In this document: positions 17,512 through 32,232 of the stretch, in pieces | Layout: each line of letters begins with the position of its first letter | How positions within the stretch are numbered: position 1 is the first letter of the stretch | Origin: Candidatus Buchananbacteria bacterium | Lineage (GTDB): Bacteria > Patescibacteriota > Patescibacteriia > Buchananbacterales > UBA6539 | Assembly (NCBI GenBank): GCA_041664165.1 | Contig: JBAYLH010000001.1 | Coordinates: 9,469-73,468 of the forward strand | Reading direction: 5' to 3' | Length of the DNA: 64,000 bases | Notes under the pieces: model-generated | The model's database searches: none | The model's input: only the letters and a program-made list of their open reading frames with translations | Told to the model about the DNA's origin: nothing | Position numbers and translations under genes: made by a program

Positions 17512-17566
17512 ACCGGAGTTGATTTTTTAGCTAAAAGTGCTAAACTAAAATCTGTATTTAATAACG

Positions 17567-17672
17567 GGCCTGCCTGCCGGTAGGCAGGCTGTAGTCCCGC
17601 CCTTCGCGAAGGGCGGGATAAACTCCGCTGCCCGCCCGCCTGCTTCACAGGCGAAGCGGGCGGGACTAGCGC
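17567..17672. repeat. Cluster of three strong GC-rich hairpins upstream of tRNA-Pro
   Basis: gcctgccggtaggcaggc; tcccgcccttcgcgaagggcggga; cccgcccgcctgcttcacaggcgaagcgggcggg. Not protein-coding. Confidence 0.5.
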
Positions 17673-17704
17673 GTCCCTCACCTTTAACAATCTTTCACCT
17701 TTGT

Positions 17705-17778
17705 CGGGGTGTAGCGTAATTGGTTATCGCGCACGCTTCGGGTGCGTGAGATTCCGGGTTCGAGTCCCGGCACCCCGA
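17705..17778 (+). tRNA. tRNA-Pro (anticodon CGG)
   Basis: Cloverleaf CGGGGTG/CACCCCG acceptor, anticodon arm CACGC-TTCGGGT-GCGTG, T-arm CCGGG-TTCGAGT-CCCGG. No CCA encoded. Flanked by a 13-bp inverted repeat (tccctcaccttta / taaaggtgaggga). Confidence 0.8.
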
Positions 17779-17783
17779 TAAAG

Positions 17784-17832
17784 GTGAGGGATTCGGGACG
17801 ATGAGGTCAGGAGTTCGAATCTCCCCAGCCCG
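17784..17832 (+). pseudogene. tRNA-like 3'-half fragment (T-arm GGAGTTCGAATCTCC plus acceptor-like CCAGCCCGA), probably an integration scar
   Basis: No matching 5' acceptor strand or D/anticodon arms were found upstream. Confidence 0.35.
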
Positions 17833-17837
17833 ATTTA

Positions 17838-26860: not shown

Positions 26861-28699
26861 TTAGCGCGCAACCTTCACCGATGCCAAACTCCCGGCAATC
26901 GTCGGCTCGTTGGAGCAAGGATTGCATAGCGGCGGCTCGACACCGCTTGGTATCAGGATTGCCAGCACTTCGGTCAAGTTGGCGTCGTGGTAGTCAGTTT
27001 CGATGTCGCACAAAAACGTACTATCCGCGTTAATAGTCGTCAACGGCCGGTTCAAGTATGGCTTGATCCACCAAGACCCGTAAGCCTTGATGTAAACCGC
27101 TACCCGGCAATCAGCGGGGTTGACGCCACTCACCTTGCCTTGCATCAGGCTAGTACTGCCGGCTGGCGGCAAATAGGTGATTTCAATGCTCGGCACCGTT
27201 ATTATCGGCGGCCAGATTGGCACTGCCAACTGCCAGCCAAAGTCGCTGACCGTTACCACGGTTTCGCTGTTATTTTGCGGACCGTTGTTATCGCTCAACC
27301 ACAGGTTGAAGTGAAATGCCTCATTGCCCGGAACTGGAATGGCTTCCCGGTCATACACCCAGGAACGCACCAGTTTTTCGGCTGGCGGCAAATTCGCCAA
27401 GGTATAGCGGCCGTAATAGGTCCGAAATTCGACATAAGTCGACTGCCACACCAAATAGTGGGTAATGTCCGGCGCCGCGTCCGGCAGCGTAACGTAATAA
27501 CGCTGGACCATGCCCAGCCAAAACGGGTTGATGGCAAACTGGGCGTTATCCGAATCGTTTGCGTTCCCCCACCGGCTGAACTCGAAGTCGAACTCCTTGT
27601 GCTTGATCATTTTCTCCGCATCCGACCAGGTAAAAAGGCCGAAAGTCAGATTCGGATCAAGTAGGTCAACGCGGCCGTGAGTCGAAAAGCAGTAAGTACC
27701 GTAGCCCAAGGATTCTTCGAGAAAAACCTCGCTGCAGTACCAATTGCCGCCAAGTTGGCGCAGGGCCAAATTGATGCCCGAGGAGTCTATCCAGACGCTG
27801 TTTTCCGTGTCGGAGAAGAAGTTCTGGCCCGGATCAATCCGTTGTCCCTCGTCGCTTCGCTTGACCGTCCATGTTCGGCCGGCAAAAGGAATCCGGCGAA
27901 TCGGCAAAATCACTTTCTTGAGCACCGCCGTGACGGTTCGATTGGCCGTCATCGTGGTCGTCGTCGGATTGGCATGAATGTTTGCGACATTGCCAGTCCA
28001 GTAATCAAATTGCCAGCCTTCGGCCGGGTTCGCTTTAACCGTAACTACGGTTCCTTGGTTATAGCGAGCGCTTGACGGCACCACCTCGCCAGATCCGCTC
28101 GGACTAACCATCGTGGTCAGCAAATACGTTGTCGGATTGACCGTAACAAATACCGCCGTGATCGTCCGATTGGCCGTCATCGCCAGCGTCGTCGGATTGG
28201 TAGAAACGTCGGCAACCTCGCCGGTCCAATGGTCAAACTGCCAGCCAGCGGCTGGACTTGCCGTCAAGCTAATCTCTTGGCCGTAAGCAAAAGTGCCACT
28301 GGCCGGGTGGACTGAGCCGCCGTTCGAAGGAACCGCCGCCGTATTCAACTCAACCTCGGCCGGCGGTTCGGTGATGGTAACATTAACCATCTGCTGATCG
28401 ACAATGCCGATGGGGCCATTGAGCATCAGGAAAAAACTGCTCTTTCCAACTTGCCCCATCGCCCTAACCGACATCGTGTTGCCAGTGATACCAACCTGGA
28501 CATATTGGCTGTCAATACCAGTCACACTCCAGGTCAAAATCCGACCAGCGCCGTTTTGGATGTGACCACTCAAGTTGATAGTACTTTCGCCCATCGGCGT
28601 CAGCACTAAATCTGAAACAGGCGGAGAAATCTTGGTCGGATGAGGGCACCCCGCCAAAGCCAACATCACAACGATTACTACCAACATTTTCTTGTACAT
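26861..28699 (-). CDS. Lipoprotein with two InlB-B-repeat (Flg_new-like) domains and a GH16-like glycoside hydrolase domain; GC-rich (~58%) cassette v
   Basis: LALAGC lipobox; duplicated GWQFDHWTGEV / GWQFDYWTGNV segments; EFDFEF fits the GH16 ExDxxE catalytic pattern. Confidence 0.55.
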   Translation of the reverse strand: MYKKMLVVIVVMLALAGCPHPTKISPPVSDLVLTPMGESTINLSGHIQNGAGRILTWSVTGIDSQYVQVGITGNTMSVRAMGQVGKSSFFLMLNGPIGIVDQQMVNVTITEPPAEVELNTAAVPSNGGSVHPASGTFAYGQEISLTASPAAGWQFDHWTGEVADVSTNPTTLAMTANRTITAVFVTVNPTTYLLTTMVSPSGSGEVVPSSARYNQGTVVTVKANPAEGWQFDYWTGNVANIHANPTTTTMTANRTVTAVLKKVILPIRRIPFAGRTWTVKRSDEGQRIDPGQNFFSDTENSVWIDSSGINLALRQLGGNWYCSEVFLEESLGYGTYCFSTHGRVDLLDPNLTFGLFTWSDAEKMIKHKEFDFEFSRWGNANDSDNAQFAINPFWLGMVQRYYVTLPDAAPDITHYLVWQSTYVEFRTYYGRYTLANLPPAEKLVRSWVYDREAIPVPGNEAFHFNLWLSDNNGPQNNSETVVTVSDFGWQLAVPIWPPIITVPSIEITYLPPAGSTSLMQGKVSGVNPADCRVAVYIKAYGSWWIKPYLNRPLTTINADSTFLCDIETDYHDANLTEVLAILIPSGVEPPLCNPCSNEPTIAGSLASVKVAR

Positions 28700-28766
28700 C
28701 TTTCAAACTCCTTGTCCTGTTGCTCCACGTTTTACTACTAATAACTCAGCCAAACCTCTCACCATC

Positions 28767-28795
28767 GGTATACTCCAAAAAAAATTAATTGTCAA
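28767..28795 (-). promoter_or_regulatory. Near-consensus promoter TTGACA-N17-TATACC of cassette v
   Basis: Minus strand TTGACAattaattttttttggagTATACC, about 70-nt leader, RBS aaggag. Confidence 0.45.
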
Positions 28796-28865
28796 ACCAA
28801 AAAAGACCAATAAAACCCGGCCTGTTTGGTACCAAAAAACCGCCCCTTCAAGGCGATTTTCCGTA

Positions 28866-28939
28866 TGGCAGGGGCGGAAGGTGATGCTCCCTCGTCTGCG
28901 GTTTTGGAGACCGCCGTTCTACTGTTGAACTACGCCCCC
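28866..28939 (-). tRNA. tRNA-Trp (anticodon CCA), intact copy with unusual T-loop
   Basis: GGGGGCG acceptor, D-arm GTTC-AACAGTA-GAAC, anticodon arm GCGGT-CTCCAAA-ACCGC, 3' CGCCCCT-G-CCA (CCA encoded). T-loop AGCATCA is atypical. Confidence 0.65.
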
Positions 28940-28954
28940 GTAAAAAACTCCAAC

Positions 28955-29206
28955 CTATTTTAATCCTAATCTTTTCATTAATGCCATATACACTGAACCA
29001 CTTGATTTTATTCCTTTTTCTCTTTTTAACGCCAGATATTTATCATTATATGCTTCATAATACAATAATCTTGGGTTTTTGTCCTTGGTTGTTTTTACCC
29101 GACCTGACAAATGTTCCTCTAACCTCTTTTTAAGATCCGAGGCATAACCAATATAAAAATCTTTATTTTTAATACCATCAATTTTTAATAAATAAACGTA
29201 GTACAT
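28955..29206 (-). CDS. Small GIY-YIG nuclease family protein (copy 1)
   Basis: MYYVYLLKIDGIKNKDFYIGYASDLKKRLEEH is the GIY-YIG motif. 83 aa. Confidence 0.75.
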   Translation of the reverse strand: MYYVYLLKIDGIKNKDFYIGYASDLKKRLEEHLSGRVKTTKDKNPRLLYYEAYNDKYLALKREKGIKSSGSVYMALMKRLGLK

Positions 29207-29211
29207 AATCG

Positions 29212-29312
29212 ACTAGTTTTGGAGACACCCGTCGCTCGCGAGCCACGTCGCACGTGTGCGACTGTGGCGAGCAACGGGTGAGACCGCCGTTCTACTGTTG
29301 AACTACGCCCCC
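29212..29312 (-). pseudogene. Orphan 5' copy of tRNA-Trp (positions 1 to ~41) interrupted by a 58-nt GC-rich hairpin insertion in the anticodon stem-loop
   Basis: gttttggagaccgccgttctactgttgaactacgccccc duplicates 28895-28939. The insert at 29227-29284 is bounded by a 5-bp repeat gagac. Confidence 0.55.
29227..29284. repeat. 58-nt GC-rich imperfect palindrome (hairpin element) inside the orphan tRNA-Trp
   Basis: cacccgtcgctcgc-gagccacgtcgcacgtgtgcgactgtggc-gagcaacgggtg. Confidence 0.55.
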
Positions 29313-29339
29313 ATGGCCAAAAGTCCCGATGGCCGGGAC

Positions 29340-29495
29340 TTACTTGGTTTCTTTATGTGTTACATGCTTTTTACAATGCTTGCAGAATTTTTTCATTTCC
29401 AGTCGGTTCTTAAGAGTCTTTTTATTCTTTTTGGAAAAATAATTCACTCTTTTACAGGCAGTGCATTCTAATTTTATCAGGTTGTCTTGGGACAT
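29340..29495 (-). CDS. rpmG: 50S ribosomal protein L33 (below the ORF-track cutoff)
   Basis: [51 protein letters not shown]. Confidence 0.7.
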
Positions 29496-29560
29496 AAATT
29501 AGGTATTAGGTTATTAGGTGTTAGGTTGCTAGGTATTAGCTGTTAGTTTTAAAGCCAACA
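29496..29560. repeat. (ACCUAA)n-type leader repeat abutting the rpmG start codon
   Basis: Coding strand reads ...acctagcaacctaacacctaataacctaatacctaatttATG. Confidence 0.5.
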
Positions 29561-29666
29561 GCTCCGATTTTAAGCTGGGACGACCTACTTATTTATCCCG
29601 ACTTCTTTATTTTTTTTAAACAATTCGGTACGTCGGGACAAAACAGTTGTTCCACCTGCCCTTGCC

Positions 29667-29700
29667 TTAGCCGACGGGGTGATTTGAACACCCGACCAAT
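29667..29700 (-). pseudogene. tRNA 3'-half-like fragment (T-arm GGGTG-TTCAAAT-CACCC)
   Basis: Canonical T-arm with no matching 5' half nearby. Confidence 0.3.
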
Positions 29701-29729
29701 AGTTTATCCCGATTTTATTTAAAATTTTA

Positions 29730-29803
29730 CTGGAGCCGGGGACAGGAATTGAACCTGCGACCAATAGTTTACAAAACTACTGCTCTACCGCTGAGCTACC
29801 CCG
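29730..29803 (-). tRNA. tRNA-Thr (anticodon UGU)
   Basis: GCCGGGG-TA-GCTCAGCGGTAGAGC-A-GTAGT-TTTGTAA-ACTAT...GCAGG-TTCAATT-CCTGT-CCCCGGC-T-CCA. Confidence 0.85.
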
Positions 29804-29860
29804 GCTCGGGCTAAGGCGGGCAGGTCTACCACTGAACTATCCCGGCTCGCGGGAGCAGGT
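29804..29860 (-). pseudogene. Diverged partial duplicate of a tRNA 5' end (acceptor plus D-arm), possibly a decayed tRNA-Gly
   Basis: gagccgggatagttcagtggtagac resembles the adjacent gagccggggtagctcagcggtagagc. Confidence 0.35.
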
Positions 29861-29865
29861 CTAAA

Positions 29866-29950
29866 TGGTGGGTGGAGCAGGATTCGAACCTACGTAGGCG
29901 TAAGCCAGCTGATTTACAGTCAGCCCTCGTTGACCGCTTGAGTATCCACC
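29866..29950 (-). tRNA. tRNA-Tyr (anticodon GUA), long variable arm
   Basis: GGGTGGA...GCTGA-CTGTAAA-TCAGC, variable arm TGGCTTACGCCTAC, T-arm GTAGG-TTCGAAT-CCTGC, 3' TCCACCC-A-CCA. Confidence 0.85.
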
Positions 29951-29960
29951 CATGGATTTA

Positions 29961-30200
29961 TTATTTCAAAATACTATCTAAATATTTTCTGCCTTGACCT
30001 GATTTTAAAAATTTTTCTCTTTTCATTGTCTCAGCTCTAGTTGAAAACTCTTCTTGATAAACTAACAGCCAAGGTCTCCTTCCTTTGGTATATCTGCACT
30101 TGCTCCGATTATGCTCCTCTATTCTCTTAACGACATTTTCCGTACTGCCAATATACCTATTTAAATATTTTACACTTTTTAAGACATAAACATAATACAT
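29961..30200 (-). CDS. Small GIY-YIG nuclease family protein (copy 2)
   Basis: MYYVYVLKSVKYLNRYIGSTENVVKRIEEH. Start taken at the internal Met at 30200; the track ORF runs to 30266 through GC-rich hairpin DNA. Confidence 0.7.
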   Translation of the reverse strand: MYYVYVLKSVKYLNRYIGSTENVVKRIEEHNRSKCRYTKGRRPWLLVYQEEFSTRAETMKREKFLKSGQGRKYLDSILK

Positions 30201-30202
30201 AG

Positions 30203-30314
30203 CAACATATATATAGTCAGCAAGGTTGGGCGGATTCCCCGCCAGAGCCTGTCTGTCGGCAGACAAGGCGAGTGCGCCTCTTGAGCCAGAGGCTCATCTG
30301 TTTTCGGTATGAGG
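30203..30314. repeat. GC-rich hairpin cluster between GIY-YIG copy 2 and the orphan tRNA-Tyr
   Basis: gcctgtctg-tcgg-cagacaagg; gcctct-tgagcc-agaggc. Confidence 0.4.
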
Positions 30315-30436
30315 CGCAGAACCTACGTAGGCGTAAGCCAGCTGATTTATGATGCCAAAGGCACATCCGCCTTACCCGCCTCTGGTGTGGCCTTCCGGCG
30401 GACAGTCAGCCCTCGTTGACCGCTTGAGTATCCACC
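30315..30436 (-). pseudogene. Orphan degenerate 5' copy of tRNA-Tyr with a 53-nt GC-rich insertion in the anticodon loop (insert 30350-30402)
   Basis: Matches 29884-29950 except for the T-arm end and the insert tgatgccaaaggcacatccgccttacccgcctctggtgtggccttccggcgga, which sits between anticodon positions 34/35. Confidence 0.55.
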
Positions 30437-30503
30437 CATGGATTTATTATTTCAAAATACTATCTAAATATTTTCTGCCCTGGCCTGATTTTAAAAATTT
30501 TTC

Positions 30504-30579
30504 TGGAGCCCACTCGCGGATTTGAACCGCGGACCTACTCCTTACCATGGAGTTGCTCTACCAACTGAGCTAAGTGGGC
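30504..30579 (-). tRNA. tRNA-Thr (anticodon GGU)
   Basis: GCCCACT-TA-GCTCAGTTGGTAGAGC-A-ACTCC-ATGGTAA-GGAGT-AGGTC-CGCGG-TTCAAAT-CCGCG-AGTGGGC-T-CCA. Confidence 0.85.
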
Positions 30580-30591
30580 AAAAAATCAAAA

Positions 30592-31419
30592 TTACTTCTC
30601 TAAATCAGGCAAACTGTCAATTTCCTCTTTCAATTCCGAAAGCTTTTGATTGCCCGGATCGGCCGCCTTTAAATCAGAAAAGGCCTGCCAGGCCAGCTTT
30701 TTGTTCTTTAATATTATACTCATTTTCAATAATAAGTCAAGAAAACGCGGGTTAGTCGGTTCGAGTTCAACTGCTTTTTGAAAATTGCTTAAACTGAAAT
30801 TCTGCTTGTTTTCAAGCTGATAAACCCAGCCAAGATCGGCATAGCAATTGGCTAAGCGGTGTTTATTCGACCCATCTTCGGTTTGACTAACATTTTTATT
30901 CAATAATTTAAGCAAATAGCGGCAAGTCTCCCGCGCTTTTTTATAATCTTTTTGACCCAGATAAACGTCCGCTAAATAATCATAGACATCCAAATTCTGG
31001 GGATCTAATTCAACAATCGAAATGCCGATTTCTTCCGCTCTGGCAAATTCCTGAGCCGCCAGCGCTTTTTCCAGTTCGGCTAATTTATCTTTGACTTGGC
31101 CGCTAATATCAATTTCCTTCAACGGCTGATTTCTTTTTAAACTCTGTTTTTCCAGTTCAAGAGTTTTTTGATAAAAATCTTTCGCCGTAGTTTTAATATT
31201 TTCGACTAGCGGCTTGGAAATATCAACGGTAGCTCGCCTTAGATTGGAATAGCTTCTGGCCAGGCGTTCAATCATAATCCGGTTTTTAACTTTATTTTCC
31301 TTTTCCTTGGCGATTGATTCAATATTAATCGCCGCCAAATTGGGAAACTTTTTAACCACGATAAAAATTATTATCGATAAGCTGATAATAATGATAATTA
31401 AAGGTATGAGATAAAGCAT
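30592..31419 (-). CDS. Membrane-anchored TPR-repeat protein
   Basis: N-terminal TM LYLIPLIIIIISLSIIIFIVV followed by TPR-like repeats (ADVYLGQKDYKKARETCRYLLK). Confidence 0.5.
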   Translation of the reverse strand: MLYLIPLIIIIISLSIIIFIVVKKFPNLAAINIESIAKEKENKVKNRIMIERLARSYSNLRRATVDISKPLVENIKTTAKDFYQKTLELEKQSLKRNQPLKEIDISGQVKDKLAELEKALAAQEFARAEEIGISIVELDPQNLDVYDYLADVYLGQKDYKKARETCRYLLKLLNKNVSQTEDGSNKHRLANCYADLGWVYQLENKQNFSLSNFQKAVELEPTNPRFLDLLLKMSIILKNKKLAWQAFSDLKAADPGNQKLSELKEEIDSLPDLEK

Positions 31420-31476
31420 GGCCTTAAAAAACTAACGGCAGCAAATTAGCTTGAAACTTGCTACCGATATTATTAG

Positions 31477-32232
31477 CTAAATATTTTTTATTAAGCTACC
31501 AAACTCAGCGGCTTTGATTGAAGCGGCGCCGACTAAAACTCCGGCCGTATTTTCCAAACCGATAAAATCAGTAATATTAGTTTGATCAACGCTCCCGCCA
31601 TAAATAACCCGGAAATTATTCTTGACCAAAACGGCCGGAAACAGGTCAAACAAACTTTGGCGGATTACCTGGTGGGCGGCGGCGGCTTCTTGGGGCTCAA
31701 TCGCCTGGCCGGAGCCAATCACCCAAACCGGTTCATAGGCAATGATTAGCTGATTTTTGTCTTCGACCTCCAGCCCTTCCAAGGCTTTGGCAGTTTGCTC
31801 GATTAAAACATAATCCTTAGCGCCGTCTTGCCGCTGCTGAAAAGTTTCACCGACGCAGATAATCGGCGTCAAGCCGGCTTTCAAGGCCATAACCACTTTT
31901 TGATGAACCATGTCATCGGTTTCGTTCAAATATTTGCGCCGCTCGGAATGGCCTAAAATTACAAATTCGCAGCCGATTTCTTTAAGCTGGCTGGCCGAAA
32001 CTTCGCCCGTATAAGCGCCTTTGTCTTCCCAAAAGCAGTCTTGCGCTCCCAGTTTGATACCGCTGCCTTTTAATATATTTCCCACGGCAACCAGACTGAC
32101 AAAGGACGGGCAAACCACGGTTTCAACTTCGGCCGAAACACTGCCTTTGACGGCCGTGGCTAGCTGGACGCTTTCGGCCGCGCCCAATTTCATCTTCCAA
32201 TTGGCGATAACGATTGGCTTTTTATTGGACAT
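31477..32232 (-). CDS. tpiA: Triosephosphate isomerase
   Basis: IVIANWKMK, GHSERR and AYEPVWVIGSG motifs. Confidence 0.85.
   Translation of the reverse strand: MSNKKPIVIANWKMKLGAAESVQLATAVKGSVSAEVETVVCPSFVSLVAVGNILKGSGIKLGAQDCFWEDKGAYTGEVSASQLKEIGCEFVILGHSERRKYLNETDDMVHQKVVMALKAGLTPIICVGETFQQRQDGAKDYVLIEQTAKALEGLEVEDKNQLIIAYEPVWVIGSGQAIEPQEAAAAHQVIRQSLFDLFPAVLVKNNFRVIYGGSVDQTNITDFIGLENTAGVLVGAASIKAAEFGSLIKNI

Follow-up and report, generated by a model that had tools for sequence, protein, structure and literature searches.

The stretch of DNA analysed here, hereafter the window, comprises 64,000 nucleotides (nt) of a Candidatus Buchananbacteria genome (contig JBAYLH010000001.1 of assembly GCA_041664165.1). 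It contains on its minus strand two compact units, one for tryptophan and one for tyrosine, in each of which an orphan 5' piece of a transfer RNA (tRNA) gene, a gene encoding a small stand-alone GIY-YIG nuclease and a complete tRNA gene of the same identity follow one another. These units are best read as belonging, both of them, to an extensive family of selfish cassettes residing inside tRNA genes, a reading that draws on a comparison with about 160 related loci (identified below by L-numbers), mostly from Patescibacteria. Alignments of these loci make it probable, with some reserve, that the cassettes are of the homing type and use tRNA halves as homology arms, the cutting itself being a step that we infer. 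Both three-part units lie where the original prediction, made from the letters of the window alone, had placed them, and their junctions recur in two independent Joint Genome Institute (JGI) contigs of metagenome 3300037810, L001 (tRNA-Trp unit, 99.7% identity) and L002 (tRNA-Tyr unit, 100% identity), which makes misassembly unlikely.

The tRNA-Trp and tRNA-Tyr units

In minus-strand reading, the tRNA-Trp unit is preceded by rpmG (29340-29495). Its orphan piece (29280-29312) matches the first 33 positions of the intact gene (28907-28939) with 100% identity, begins exactly at tRNA position +1 and runs through C34 of the anticodon loop, the region to which the duplicated target had been predicted to extend. 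It is followed by the border hairpin H2 (29227-29279; ACCCGT.GCTCG…CGAGCGACGGGT), a palindrome of 53 nt that, together with the flanking GTCTC, folds with -36.8 kcal/mol (z = -4.6), has covarying stems in relatives and bears at its tip a nested extra palindrome of 25 nt (29243-29267), unique to the window among the H2 loci aligned. A GTCTC repeat (tRNA positions 30-34) and CAAAAC (positions 35-40) form the end of the orphan (29216-29226), as sequence comparison shows, and 9 nt separate CAAAAC from the ATG of GIY1 (28955-29206), an 83-residue nuclease of a Trp-specific clade (Pfam PF01541, E = 1.3e-11). The intact tRNA-Trp(CCA) gene (28866-28939; ARAGORN, Rfam 52 bits) starts 15 nt past the GIY1 stop codon.

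In the tRNA-Tyr unit, the duplication starts directly at the 3' end of tRNA-Thr(GGT): the segment 30319-30504 repeats 29886-30018 with 98-100% identity, the sole interruption being a 53-nt insert (30350-30402), and spans the last 18 GIY2 codons, the leader and tRNA-Tyr positions 1-56. Its first part (30438-30503, 98% identical to 29952-30017), which abuts the tRNA-Thr(GGT) 3' end and joins the final 18 codons of a GIY2-type gene to the leader of tRNA-Tyr, is the remnant of an older cassette, with 18/18 residues matched by tblastn and an identical layout in L003. Then come tRNA-Tyr positions 1-35 (30403-30437, 100% identical to 29917-29951) and, beyond the insert, the piece from the anticodon loop to C56 of the T-loop (30319-30349, ending in GGTTC, 100% identical to 29886-29916), so that the Tyr copy runs to the T-loop rather than just to the anticodon region. 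The insert sits at 35/36 of the anticodon loop (with a 1-nt ambiguity). Folded alone it does no better than shuffled sequence (z = -1.4), yet it is matched by the covariance model of the border module M described below (23.5 bits, E = 8e-4), of which it is a secondary, expanded copy, and it has no counterpart in the orthologous Tyr orphans of L003 and L005.

What had been described as 'GC hairpins' next to the Tyr orphan is actually module M, conserved at 30 nt (two hairpins of 15 nt) and here expanded to 81 nt (30238-30318, fold z = -3.0), as shown by alignment to L003 and L005 and by covariance-model matches. The loop of hairpin 1 has taken up 31 nt and that of hairpin 2 a 20-nt segment resembling hairpin H4 (see below), while L003 and L005 have the plain 30-nt form; compared with these two loci, which share the same array, the window thus has three extra segments of 53, 31 and 20 nt. 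The module is followed by a GAATCC stub ('b'; 30232-30237) that corresponds to T-loop/T-stem positions 57-62 and is recognized by its GGTTC-M-GAATCC context, by 31 nt and by GIY2 (29961-30200), a 79-residue nuclease of what we call the T-loop family (Pfam E = 2.2e-13). The intact tRNA-Tyr(GTA) gene (29866-29951; ARAGORN, Rfam) starts 9 nt past the GIY2 stop codon.

GIY1 and GIY2 are 42% identical, and in family alignments of their relatives Y5, Y16, G18, R26, H30 and E62 are invariant or nearly so, which includes the conserved catalytic Tyr, Arg, His and Glu. An AlphaFold model of GIY2 (predicted local distance difference test, pLDDT, 96) displays a beta-beta-alpha-beta-alpha-alpha fold. Profile comparison with the Protein Data Bank (PDB) returned the UPF0213 structures 1ZG2 (E = 1.5e-12) and 1YWL (6e-11) as well as SLX1 (5e-6), and Foldseek ranked 1ZG2 and Slx1 first (template modelling (TM) score 0.6-0.7, 28-34% identity), with I-TevI at TM 0.51 and 13-19% identity. 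Both nucleases are catalytic-domain-only members of the UPF0213/Slx1-like GIY-YIG branch, and no separate DNA-binding domain is present in these proteins of 79-83 amino acids, whose catalytic domain spans the whole length; in Seg- and I-TevI-type enzymes, by comparison, a DNA-binding part stands beside the catalytic domain. They are under purifying selection, the proportions of differing nonsynonymous and synonymous sites being 0.12-0.28 (pN) and 0.64-0.83 (pS) for GIY1, while the ratio of nonsynonymous to synonymous substitution rates (dN/dS) is 0.10-0.19 for GIY2 where measurable; nonsynonymous divergence is far lower than synonymous divergence, the latter being saturated. Searches of NCBIfam, PADLOC and PHROGs returned nothing meaningful beyond GIY-YIG and no sign of a defence system or phage protein.

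A family of cassettes and its hairpin borders

That these GIY-YIG proteins neighbour tRNA genes holds almost without exception among the close relatives of both nucleases. For GIY2, scanning one genome per species gave 80 loci, the hosts being mainly Patescibacteria along with some Margulisiibacteriota, Ignavibacteria, Bacteroidota, Omnitrophota and WOR-1. A tRNA gene on the same strand lies within 60 bp in 67/80, starting 0-60 bp after the stop codon in 57 and ending 0-60 bp before the start codon in 10; the remainder comprises 7/80 loci where the contig ends at the cassette and 6/80 with no tRNA neighbour. The tRNAs concerned are mostly Gln(CTG/TTG), but also Ser (four anticodons), Tyr, Asn, Phe and Arg. 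For GIY1, 80 metagenome loci were collected, 33 at about 50% identity or more and 47 more distant (43-53% identity). Among the close ones, tRNA-Trp comes next in 28/33, at a distance of 3-23 bp except in one locus, where tRNA start and stop codon overlap; the remaining 5/33 stop at a contig end. By our own estimate, based on about 45 tRNA genes per Mb, such adjacency would be expected by chance in less than 1% of cases.

GIY-YIG genes of this size at tRNA-free loci, which would speak against a specific association, do occur, but only among distant members of the family: 36/47 distant GIY1 relatives have no adjacent tRNA. An Rfam scan of 18 of these 36 showed that 11 lie, co-oriented, in or beside genes for other structured RNAs, namely in 23S ribosomal RNA (rRNA; L140, L145, L117, L162 and L128), in 16S rRNA (L134, L135 and L118), just upstream of RNase P RNA (L133 and L129) and near transfer-messenger RNA (tmRNA; L161). 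Duplicated flanks were sought at the rRNA- and RNase P-associated loci and were mostly absent, for which reason the replacement-copy logic described below appears to be specific to tRNA. Viral contigs yielded three weak relatives, none of them beside a tRNA, and a role of phages as vector is not evident from these sequences. The family is very large, since a profile search of 1.84 billion cluster representatives (clusters at 50% identity) retrieved 6,033 clusters at E <= 1e-10, a number that rises to 22,223 with the threshold set at E <= 1e-3, and related cassettes are found in a curated complete genome (L076) and on a contig of 1.04 Mb (L053). In a neighbour-joining tree of the nucleases the Trp clade is coherent, while the T-loop family is only partly grouped by tRNA identity, with Tyr appearing three times; therefore cargo switches occurred.

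A typical Gln, Ser or Tyr locus reads as follows. Its 5' part consists of a tRNA piece A (positions 1-56, ending in GGTTC), module M, GAATCC (plus 0-2 nt), 5-30 nt and the nuclease gene, and its 3' part of 5-40 nt, the complete tRNA, a spacer, (G)GTTC, a second M and a tRNA piece B (position 57 to the 3' end, starting with GAATCC), for a total span of about 0.4-0.6 kb. When each locus was searched with its own tRNA, an orphan 5' piece ending at a loop was found upstream at nearly every one, and a 3' orphan starting at the same break point was found downstream in about 40% of the loci with room for it, the rest having the 5' orphan only, like the Trp and Tyr units of the window. The break is always in a loop: in the T-loop (C56/G57) in the Tyr/Gln/Asn/Ser family, in the anticodon loop (34/35) in the Trp family and in the D-loop in the Ser(GGA) cassettes of Ignavibacteria and Bacteroidota. 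Asn-type cassettes have the complete tRNA before the nuclease. In many loci the homology between orphan and intact copies is bounded by tRNA position +1 and by the tRNA 3' end, limits that the homing reading would explain because the tRNA would be the sole homology shared by donor and recipient.

Two further features of the complete tRNA and its surroundings recur. A leader/trailer inverted repeat often surrounds it (L009, L013, L010, L024 and L030, and 17674-17791 in the window); repeats of at least 6 bp were found for 38% of cassette tRNAs, whereas the remaining tRNAs of these loci have them in 12% of cases and shuffled sequence in 14%. Tandem arrays may also lie downstream of the cassette tRNA (L020, 2870-3280; L055, 2840-3080; L009, 2850-2969), whose unit consists of a tRNA 3' part, a terminator and a partial tRNA with M in both its anticodon loop and its T-loop.

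The nature of the broken gene is clearest where the cassette tRNA differs from the orphans. In L030 and L039 the acceptor strands of the two orphans (TGGGAGA/TCTCCCA) are perfectly complementary, whereas the internal tRNA has different, internally compensated stems (TGCGGGA/TCCCGCA), and the orphan 5' strand starts exactly 54 nt before the left M. In L083 the Trp orphan differs from the intact gene by about 40%, and its acceptor strand pairs at 6/7 positions with a downstream piece located behind a hairpin. Because each orphan pairs with the other one and not with the intact tRNA, whose sequence is different, these loci and the tRNA-Pro locus of the window (see below) are, as judged from their sequences, split resident tRNA genes with a foreign tRNA inside. 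The original prediction of an element that brings in a replacement 5' half describes only one of several forms, since often a whole tRNA is carried and the resident gene is split into 5' and 3' orphans.

The other part of that prediction, insertion into a conserved tRNA array with the old 5' part left upstream, is supported by these mutually pairing orphans and by empty sites. At the rpmG-Trp site, GIY1 is present in the window and in L083 but absent in L005 and L011, relatives that share the Thr-Tyr-Thr-rpmG-Trp array and in which rpmG is directly followed by tRNA-Trp. At the Tyr site, L005 has two serial cassettes, in the older of which the nuclease gene has decayed and the orphan has diverged; in L011 the nuclease comes after tRNA-Tyr; and L003 has the same layout, with a C-terminal remnant, as the window. 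An exact look-up of the window's L33 protein, made in search of cassette-free strains, returned the same contig only. Decayed nuclease pseudogenes were seen beside intact cassettes at the same tRNA in L005 (2170-2500) and L065 (2840-3090), and the coexistence of a pseudogene and an intact cassette at one tRNA would fit the gain-decay-reinvasion pattern expected of homing endonuclease genes.

Module M, which marks the break in the T-loop family, measures 30 nt (rarely 31-33), consists of two adjacent 15-nt hairpins (consensus TGCGCC-ARA-GGCGCA YYCGCC-TYY-GGCGRR) and lies exactly between C56 and G57, its context GGTTC-M-GAATCC being invariant in about 50 loci. Among 33 distinct copies, 99% of cells are paired and six of the twelve pairs have changed on both sides; since copies were selected for hairpins the paired percentage is inflated, but covariation is unaffected by this choice, with 47 double-change cells versus 11 ± 3 in shuffles and none to three in slid registers. 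The left and right copies of one locus are usually identical. The Trp family has an equivalent border, GGTCTC–ACCYGTCGCTCG/CGAGCGACRGGT–GTCTC–CAAAAC–N2-10–ATG, kept with compensatory changes in seven loci; counterparts of H2 with covarying stems occupy the same place in L083, L084, L086, L093, L096 and L098. Two further hairpins recur, H3 (CCCGCCCTTCGCGAAGGGCGGG) and H4 (CCTGCCTGCCGGCAGGCAGG), both present in the window upstream of tRNA-Pro.

These hairpins are not generic scattered repeats, a possibility that would have undermined the predicted link with tRNA. Strong matches to the M covariance model are nearly confined to the 500 bp or so around nuclease genes (the window has them only at 30238-30402), and 196/210 half-modules (93%) are at cassettes, within about 650 bp of the nuclease, which represents the nearest 36% of the sequence. 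No other copy of the two window hairpins was found within 3 mismatches in the window. Many copies at unrelated sites, the hallmark of dispersal in the manner of repetitive extragenic palindromes (REP) or miniature inverted-repeat transposable elements (MITE), were thus not seen, with few exceptions in protein genes: M is inserted in frame in alaS in L035 (379-440) and in the gene of a class I release factor in L080 (12-41), at TT/GAA-like sites. Such modules add about 10-20 residues, at the N-terminus of the alanyl-tRNA synthetase and just ahead of the conserved GGQ region of the release factor, respectively.

Nor is the module, as had been proposed, simply a separate hairpin element that homes to anticodon loops, for it is a fixed border of the cassette, like the Trp hairpin in its seven loci. 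Secondary insertions nevertheless do occur, as the comparison of the window with L003 and L005 shows, and in other loci orphan pieces also have M in the anticodon loop, at 35/36, and in the D-loop, nearly always after a T/C-rich run and before G (GAA, GGA). It would appear from these positions that hairpins keep entering single-stranded loops. Loop insertions of this kind are seen only in dead tRNA copies, presumably because they would be lethal in functional tRNAs.

Two other loci of the window contain tRNA debris. A third split unit, which has no nuclease gene, is found on the plus strand at tRNA-Pro (17565-17833) and was recognized by the pairing of its orphan acceptor strands. Its 5' orphan, CGGG[H4]CTGTAG[H3]…[hairpin]TAGCGCG, contains three GC hairpins (H4, H3 and a third), H3 and H4 being those also found at cassettes in L102, L110, L055 and L045. 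The intact tRNA-Pro(CGG) within the unit (17704-17779) lies between the arms of an inverted repeat of leader and trailer, 13 bp long and perfect (17674-17686 and 17779-17791), and sequence comparison places the 3' orphan, which ends in CAGCCCGA, at 17792-17833. The orphans (CGGGCTG/CAGCCCG) are complementary to each other, while the intact gene has CGGGGTG/CACCCCG. The predicted tRNA-half fragments near the Tyr unit are real as well and belong to tRNA-Thr(TGT), on the minus strand: a 5' piece (positions 1-22; 29825-29846, repeat families D2 and D8) sits in a 41-nt tandem duplication (region 29804-29863) just upstream of the intact gene, and a 3' piece resembling tRNA-Thr(TGT) (position 37 to the 3' end; 29669-29705, repeat family D4, 85% identity) lies downstream of it. 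The 3' piece represents a different Thr allele, and there is no nuclease gene at the Thr locus. A short string, CGGGATAAA, made up of the 3' end of H3 and then TAAAC, recurs beside tRNA fragments (at about 17612, 29600 and 29715), a recurrence that hints at hairpin-plus-flank patches copied between loci.

Homing and its alternatives

The homing reading can be laid out as a series of steps. The nuclease would break the loop-coding part of a tRNA gene, at C56/G57 in the T-loop for the GIY2 family and at 34/35 in the anticodon loop for the GIY1/Trp family, and the break would be repaired by copying an allele that bears the cassette, the two halves of the tRNA acting as homology arms. If the right end paired with the distal orphan 3' piece, the whole cassette would be copied, giving a split resident gene with a foreign tRNA inside; if it paired instead with the cassette's own tRNA, only the module, the nuclease gene and the 5' part would be copied, giving the 5'-only form of the window. 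The existence of 5'-only, full split and 3'-only forms could in this way be due to broken ends pairing with different duplicated parts of the tRNA. The carried tRNA would keep the host viable, the hairpin module would destroy the target in the orphan pieces and the nuclease gene would presumably be expressed by read-through from the tRNA promoter (a scan for promoters and terminators gave no more matches than chance). Occasional cutting of the cassette's own tRNA, followed by repair off the orphans, is proposed to account for orphans that are usually 100% identical to the intact copy, for the tandem arrays and for the remnant of the nuclease C-terminus upstream of the Tyr orphan in the window; that orphan and intact copies are usually 100% identical despite saturated synonymous sites in the nuclease genes might thus reflect repeated conversion. 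Hairpin modules, finally, would in addition invade, as a secondary event, the single-stranded loops of other hairpins and of tRNA pieces.

Several points weigh against this scenario. Cleavage is presumptive for every member of the family, and the cassette's own intact tRNA bears the same presumed target, so that self-immunity is unaccounted for. How nucleases with no DNA-binding domain, and of the Slx1/UPF0213 rather than the I-TevI/Seg branch, would recognize tRNA genes sequence-specifically is not obvious. Short tRNA stubs are kept on the inner side of the modules, GAATCC at the left and GGTTC at the right, which gives a direct repeat of 41 nt at the two ends of the cassette, and neither these a-M-b end repeats nor the free-standing copies of M are predicted by simple gap repair, while the in-frame copies in alaS and in the release-factor gene suggest that modules can move without tRNA arms. 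Homing would also leave unexplained the change of cargo tRNA (Gln, Ser, Tyr, Asn, Phe, Arg), and the Trp and Tyr orphans of the window are identical to the intact copies, so that a foreign origin is not demonstrable there. The self-immunity, the missing DNA-binding domain, the end repeats and the free-standing copies of M are weak points that would favour a rival in which loop or hairpin structure is recognized and the hairpins are dependent mobile partners.

Such a rival shares most of its steps with homing. In one version, which we regard as doubtful, an Slx1-like nuclease would read DNA shape, cutting single-stranded cloverleaf or hairpin loops in highly transcribed genes for structured RNAs, with the 15-30-nt hairpins as its dependent mobile partners. 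If true, this would be a new loop-targeting mobile system, whose tRNA form is tolerated only with a spare tRNA, and the covarying hairpins of 15-30 nt would be the smallest mobile elements known. Another version, unlikely on the evidence gathered here, would make the palindromic modules the true mobile units and the nuclease a structure-specific helper: nicks in extruded loops would lead to the copying of GGTTC-module-GAATCC patches, with or without nuclease and tRNA, by microhomology-templated repair or by a Campbell-like recombination of modules, with no part played by long-arm homing. It would sit well with an enzyme closest to Slx1, a cutter of branched DNA, that has no DNA-binding domain, with insertion points that are all D, anticodon or T loops or tips of existing hairpins, with the same a-M-b direct repeat on both cassette ends and with lone in-frame modules at TT/GAA-like sites in alaS and the release-factor gene. 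It would also suit the 5-bp direct repeat that flanks the Trp hairpin (twice in tandem in L084) and the always co-oriented distant relatives in 16S, 23S, RNase P RNA and tmRNA genes. However, taken alone it gives no account of why the internal tRNA always matches the identity of the broken one, nor of homology with the intact copy that extends from +1 across the entire 5' part; target-site duplications are lacking at M, and no stand-alone gene consisting of a tRNA and a module only was found among the loci examined.

[quoted passage not shown] In keeping with this, relatives of the nucleases are located within 16S and 23S genes, whose function has to be preserved (see PMC11270868 for such open reading frames (ORFs)), the acceptor strands of split halves remain complementary and the hairpin stems covary like those of a structured RNA. 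Yet a complete tRNA with the identity of the broken one is part of, or adjoins, every cassette, which would be needless if the broken gene worked, the orphans are often shortened or full of further inserts in the D and anticodon arms, and duplicated GAATCC and GGTTC stubs inside the modules are unexpected for an intron. An Rfam E-value scan of 28000-31500 returned four tRNAs only, with no group I intron or other RNA family, and we consider this explanation improbable.

A still less probable explanation is that nothing here is mobile and that a housekeeping nuclease is co-transcribed with certain tRNAs, the orphans having arisen by local duplication or slippage at palindromes. The conserved order of nuclease and tRNA-Trp after rpmG among relatives of 59-80% identity and the purifying selection on the protein would be as expected, but orthologous sites are empty in L005 and L011, internal tRNAs are foreign in L030, L039 and L083, at least ten tRNA identities and several phyla are involved with a patchy distribution, and one genome has several cassettes, with decayed copies beside intact ones (L005, L065). 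The comparative data argue strongly against it. An assembly artefact, in which repeats were collapsed or chimerically joined, is suggested only by the many related contigs that stop at a cassette, a sign that assemblers struggle with these repeats, and its probability is negligible given that L001 and L002 reproduce the two units and that the same anatomy is found in more than 100 assemblies from different projects.

Other candidates were discarded. A tyrosine-integrase island was dropped for want of a recombinase, the sole ORF between orphan and intact tRNA in the Trp and Tyr units being the nuclease of 79-83 amino acids. A simple target-site duplication would leave unexplained both the start of homology at +1 and orphan halves that may represent a differing allele. 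A group I intron in a tRNA gene fits neither the lack of an Rfam match nor the presence of a complete tRNA after the ORF. An archaeal-type split tRNA is at odds with the intact gene of the same identity at every locus examined (no search for bulge-helix-bulge motifs was made).

Known systems and significance

A search of the full-text literature, which left out most subscription journals, returned no description of tRNA-linked cassettes of the UPF0213 type, of bacterial split tRNA genes with replacement copies or of these hairpin modules. The original prediction came with the remark that no described mobile element was known to pair such a nuclease gene with anticodon-loop hairpins; phage SegB, however, is a close analogue. 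SegB of phages T4 and T6 is a free-standing GIY-YIG homing endonuclease in a tRNA gene cluster (PMC2330249, PMC13096335), it cuts inside tRNA genes at the motif RAWTSGAAC and it drives recombination-dependent tandem repeats that contain tRNA-Tyr and a C-terminally truncated segB (PMC13096335). On our reading, RAWTSGAAC would be the reverse complement of the T-loop coding sequence GTTCSAWTY; the term 'T-loop' occurs nowhere in the text of that paper (PMC13096335). In both systems a GIY-YIG gene adjoins tRNA genes, the motif would lie where GIY2-family cassettes break the tRNA, and repeats of tRNA-Tyr with a truncated nuclease have the same layout as the Tyr unit of the window. In contrast, SegB is a phage protein whereas the cassette nucleases are chromosomal, have 79-83 amino acids, belong to the UPF0213/Slx1 branch and have no PHROG match, and SegB loci have not been described with split tRNA genes, orphan halves, a replacement tRNA or hairpin modules. 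The cassettes resemble free-standing homing genes in that the nuclease gene is in or beside its presumed target and is present or absent at orthologous sites.

The replacement of a displaced gene part also has a precedent. Mobile ORFs (mORFs) of fungal mitochondria (Allomyces atp6-ORF360; Glomus atp6, atp9, cox2 and nad3) bring a replacement gene end, the native end becoming a pseudogene (PMC3630166). In both cases an endonuclease ORF enters a gene and replaces the part that it displaces, possibly with a foreign one, and in the cassettes the displaced native part is likewise duplicated and non-functional, the orphans having extra inserts and lacking the remainder of the gene. mORFs, however, are found in mitochondrial protein genes, replace C-termini, lack hairpin modules and code for enzymes of the LAGLIDADG type or for GIY-YIG enzymes of full size, while the cassettes hit bacterial tRNA genes, replace a 5' part or a whole gene and have a conserved hairpin at each break. 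Closer in host range, GIY-YIG ORFs are on record in non-intron insertion sequences of CPR rRNA genes (PMC11270868). These too are small GIY-YIG proteins of the same hosts, in structured-RNA genes where neither a group I nor a group II intron is present, but tRNA cassettes are absent from that study, as are orphan halves, replacement genes and hairpin modules. The group I introns known from Patescibacteria tRNA genes, at position 35/36, are self-splicing, measure 184-894 nt, reside in functional genes and have HNH endonucleases where they have any (PMC13011429). They share the phylum and the unusual 35/36 site with the secondary M insertions in Gln and Tyr orphans, whereas M inserts sit in dead copies and no group I intron is present in the region scanned.

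Two classes of mobile DNA are reminiscent of the cassettes in other respects. Integrative elements that target tRNA genes are of kilobase scale, encode a tyrosine integrase, cross over in the 3' part of the gene and leave a short attachment (att) repeat; like them, the cassettes insert into a tRNA gene, restore a complete gene and leave the duplicated segment as a direct repeat, but they measure about 0.4-0.6 kb, have no recombinase and break the gene in a loop. REP/RAYT systems, Rickettsia palindromic elements and yeast mitochondrial GC clusters are short GC-rich palindromes in an AT-richer genome, with in-frame, RNA-gene and nested insertions. The modules, by contrast, measure 15-30 nt, go together with a single nuclease family and with tRNA loops and border a gene cassette, with no HUH transposase implicated.

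Free-standing homing nucleases beside tRNA genes and mobile ORFs that bring a replacement gene part are known in principle, and what appears to be new is the setting in bacterial chromosomes, the minimal Slx1-like enzyme, the spare tRNA carried in full, the breaks at all three loops and the covarying hairpin borders. The cassettes would account for a very common and so far uninterpreted Patescibacteria gene, annotated as 'GIY-YIG nuclease family protein', as well as for the tRNA debris near these genes and the frequent assembly breaks there, and tRNA annotation and binning of CPR genomes should allow for such units. More generally, a homing-type element could occupy an essential single-copy RNA gene by bringing a replacement, whereby foreign tRNA genes would cross lineages, and it would offer a natural case of a nuclease reduced to its catalytic domain that nonetheless finds specific genes. 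The family would therefore provide material for the study of target recognition without a DNA-binding domain, of the spread of short hairpins and of a possible scrambling of tRNA phylogenies by cassette-borne replacement.

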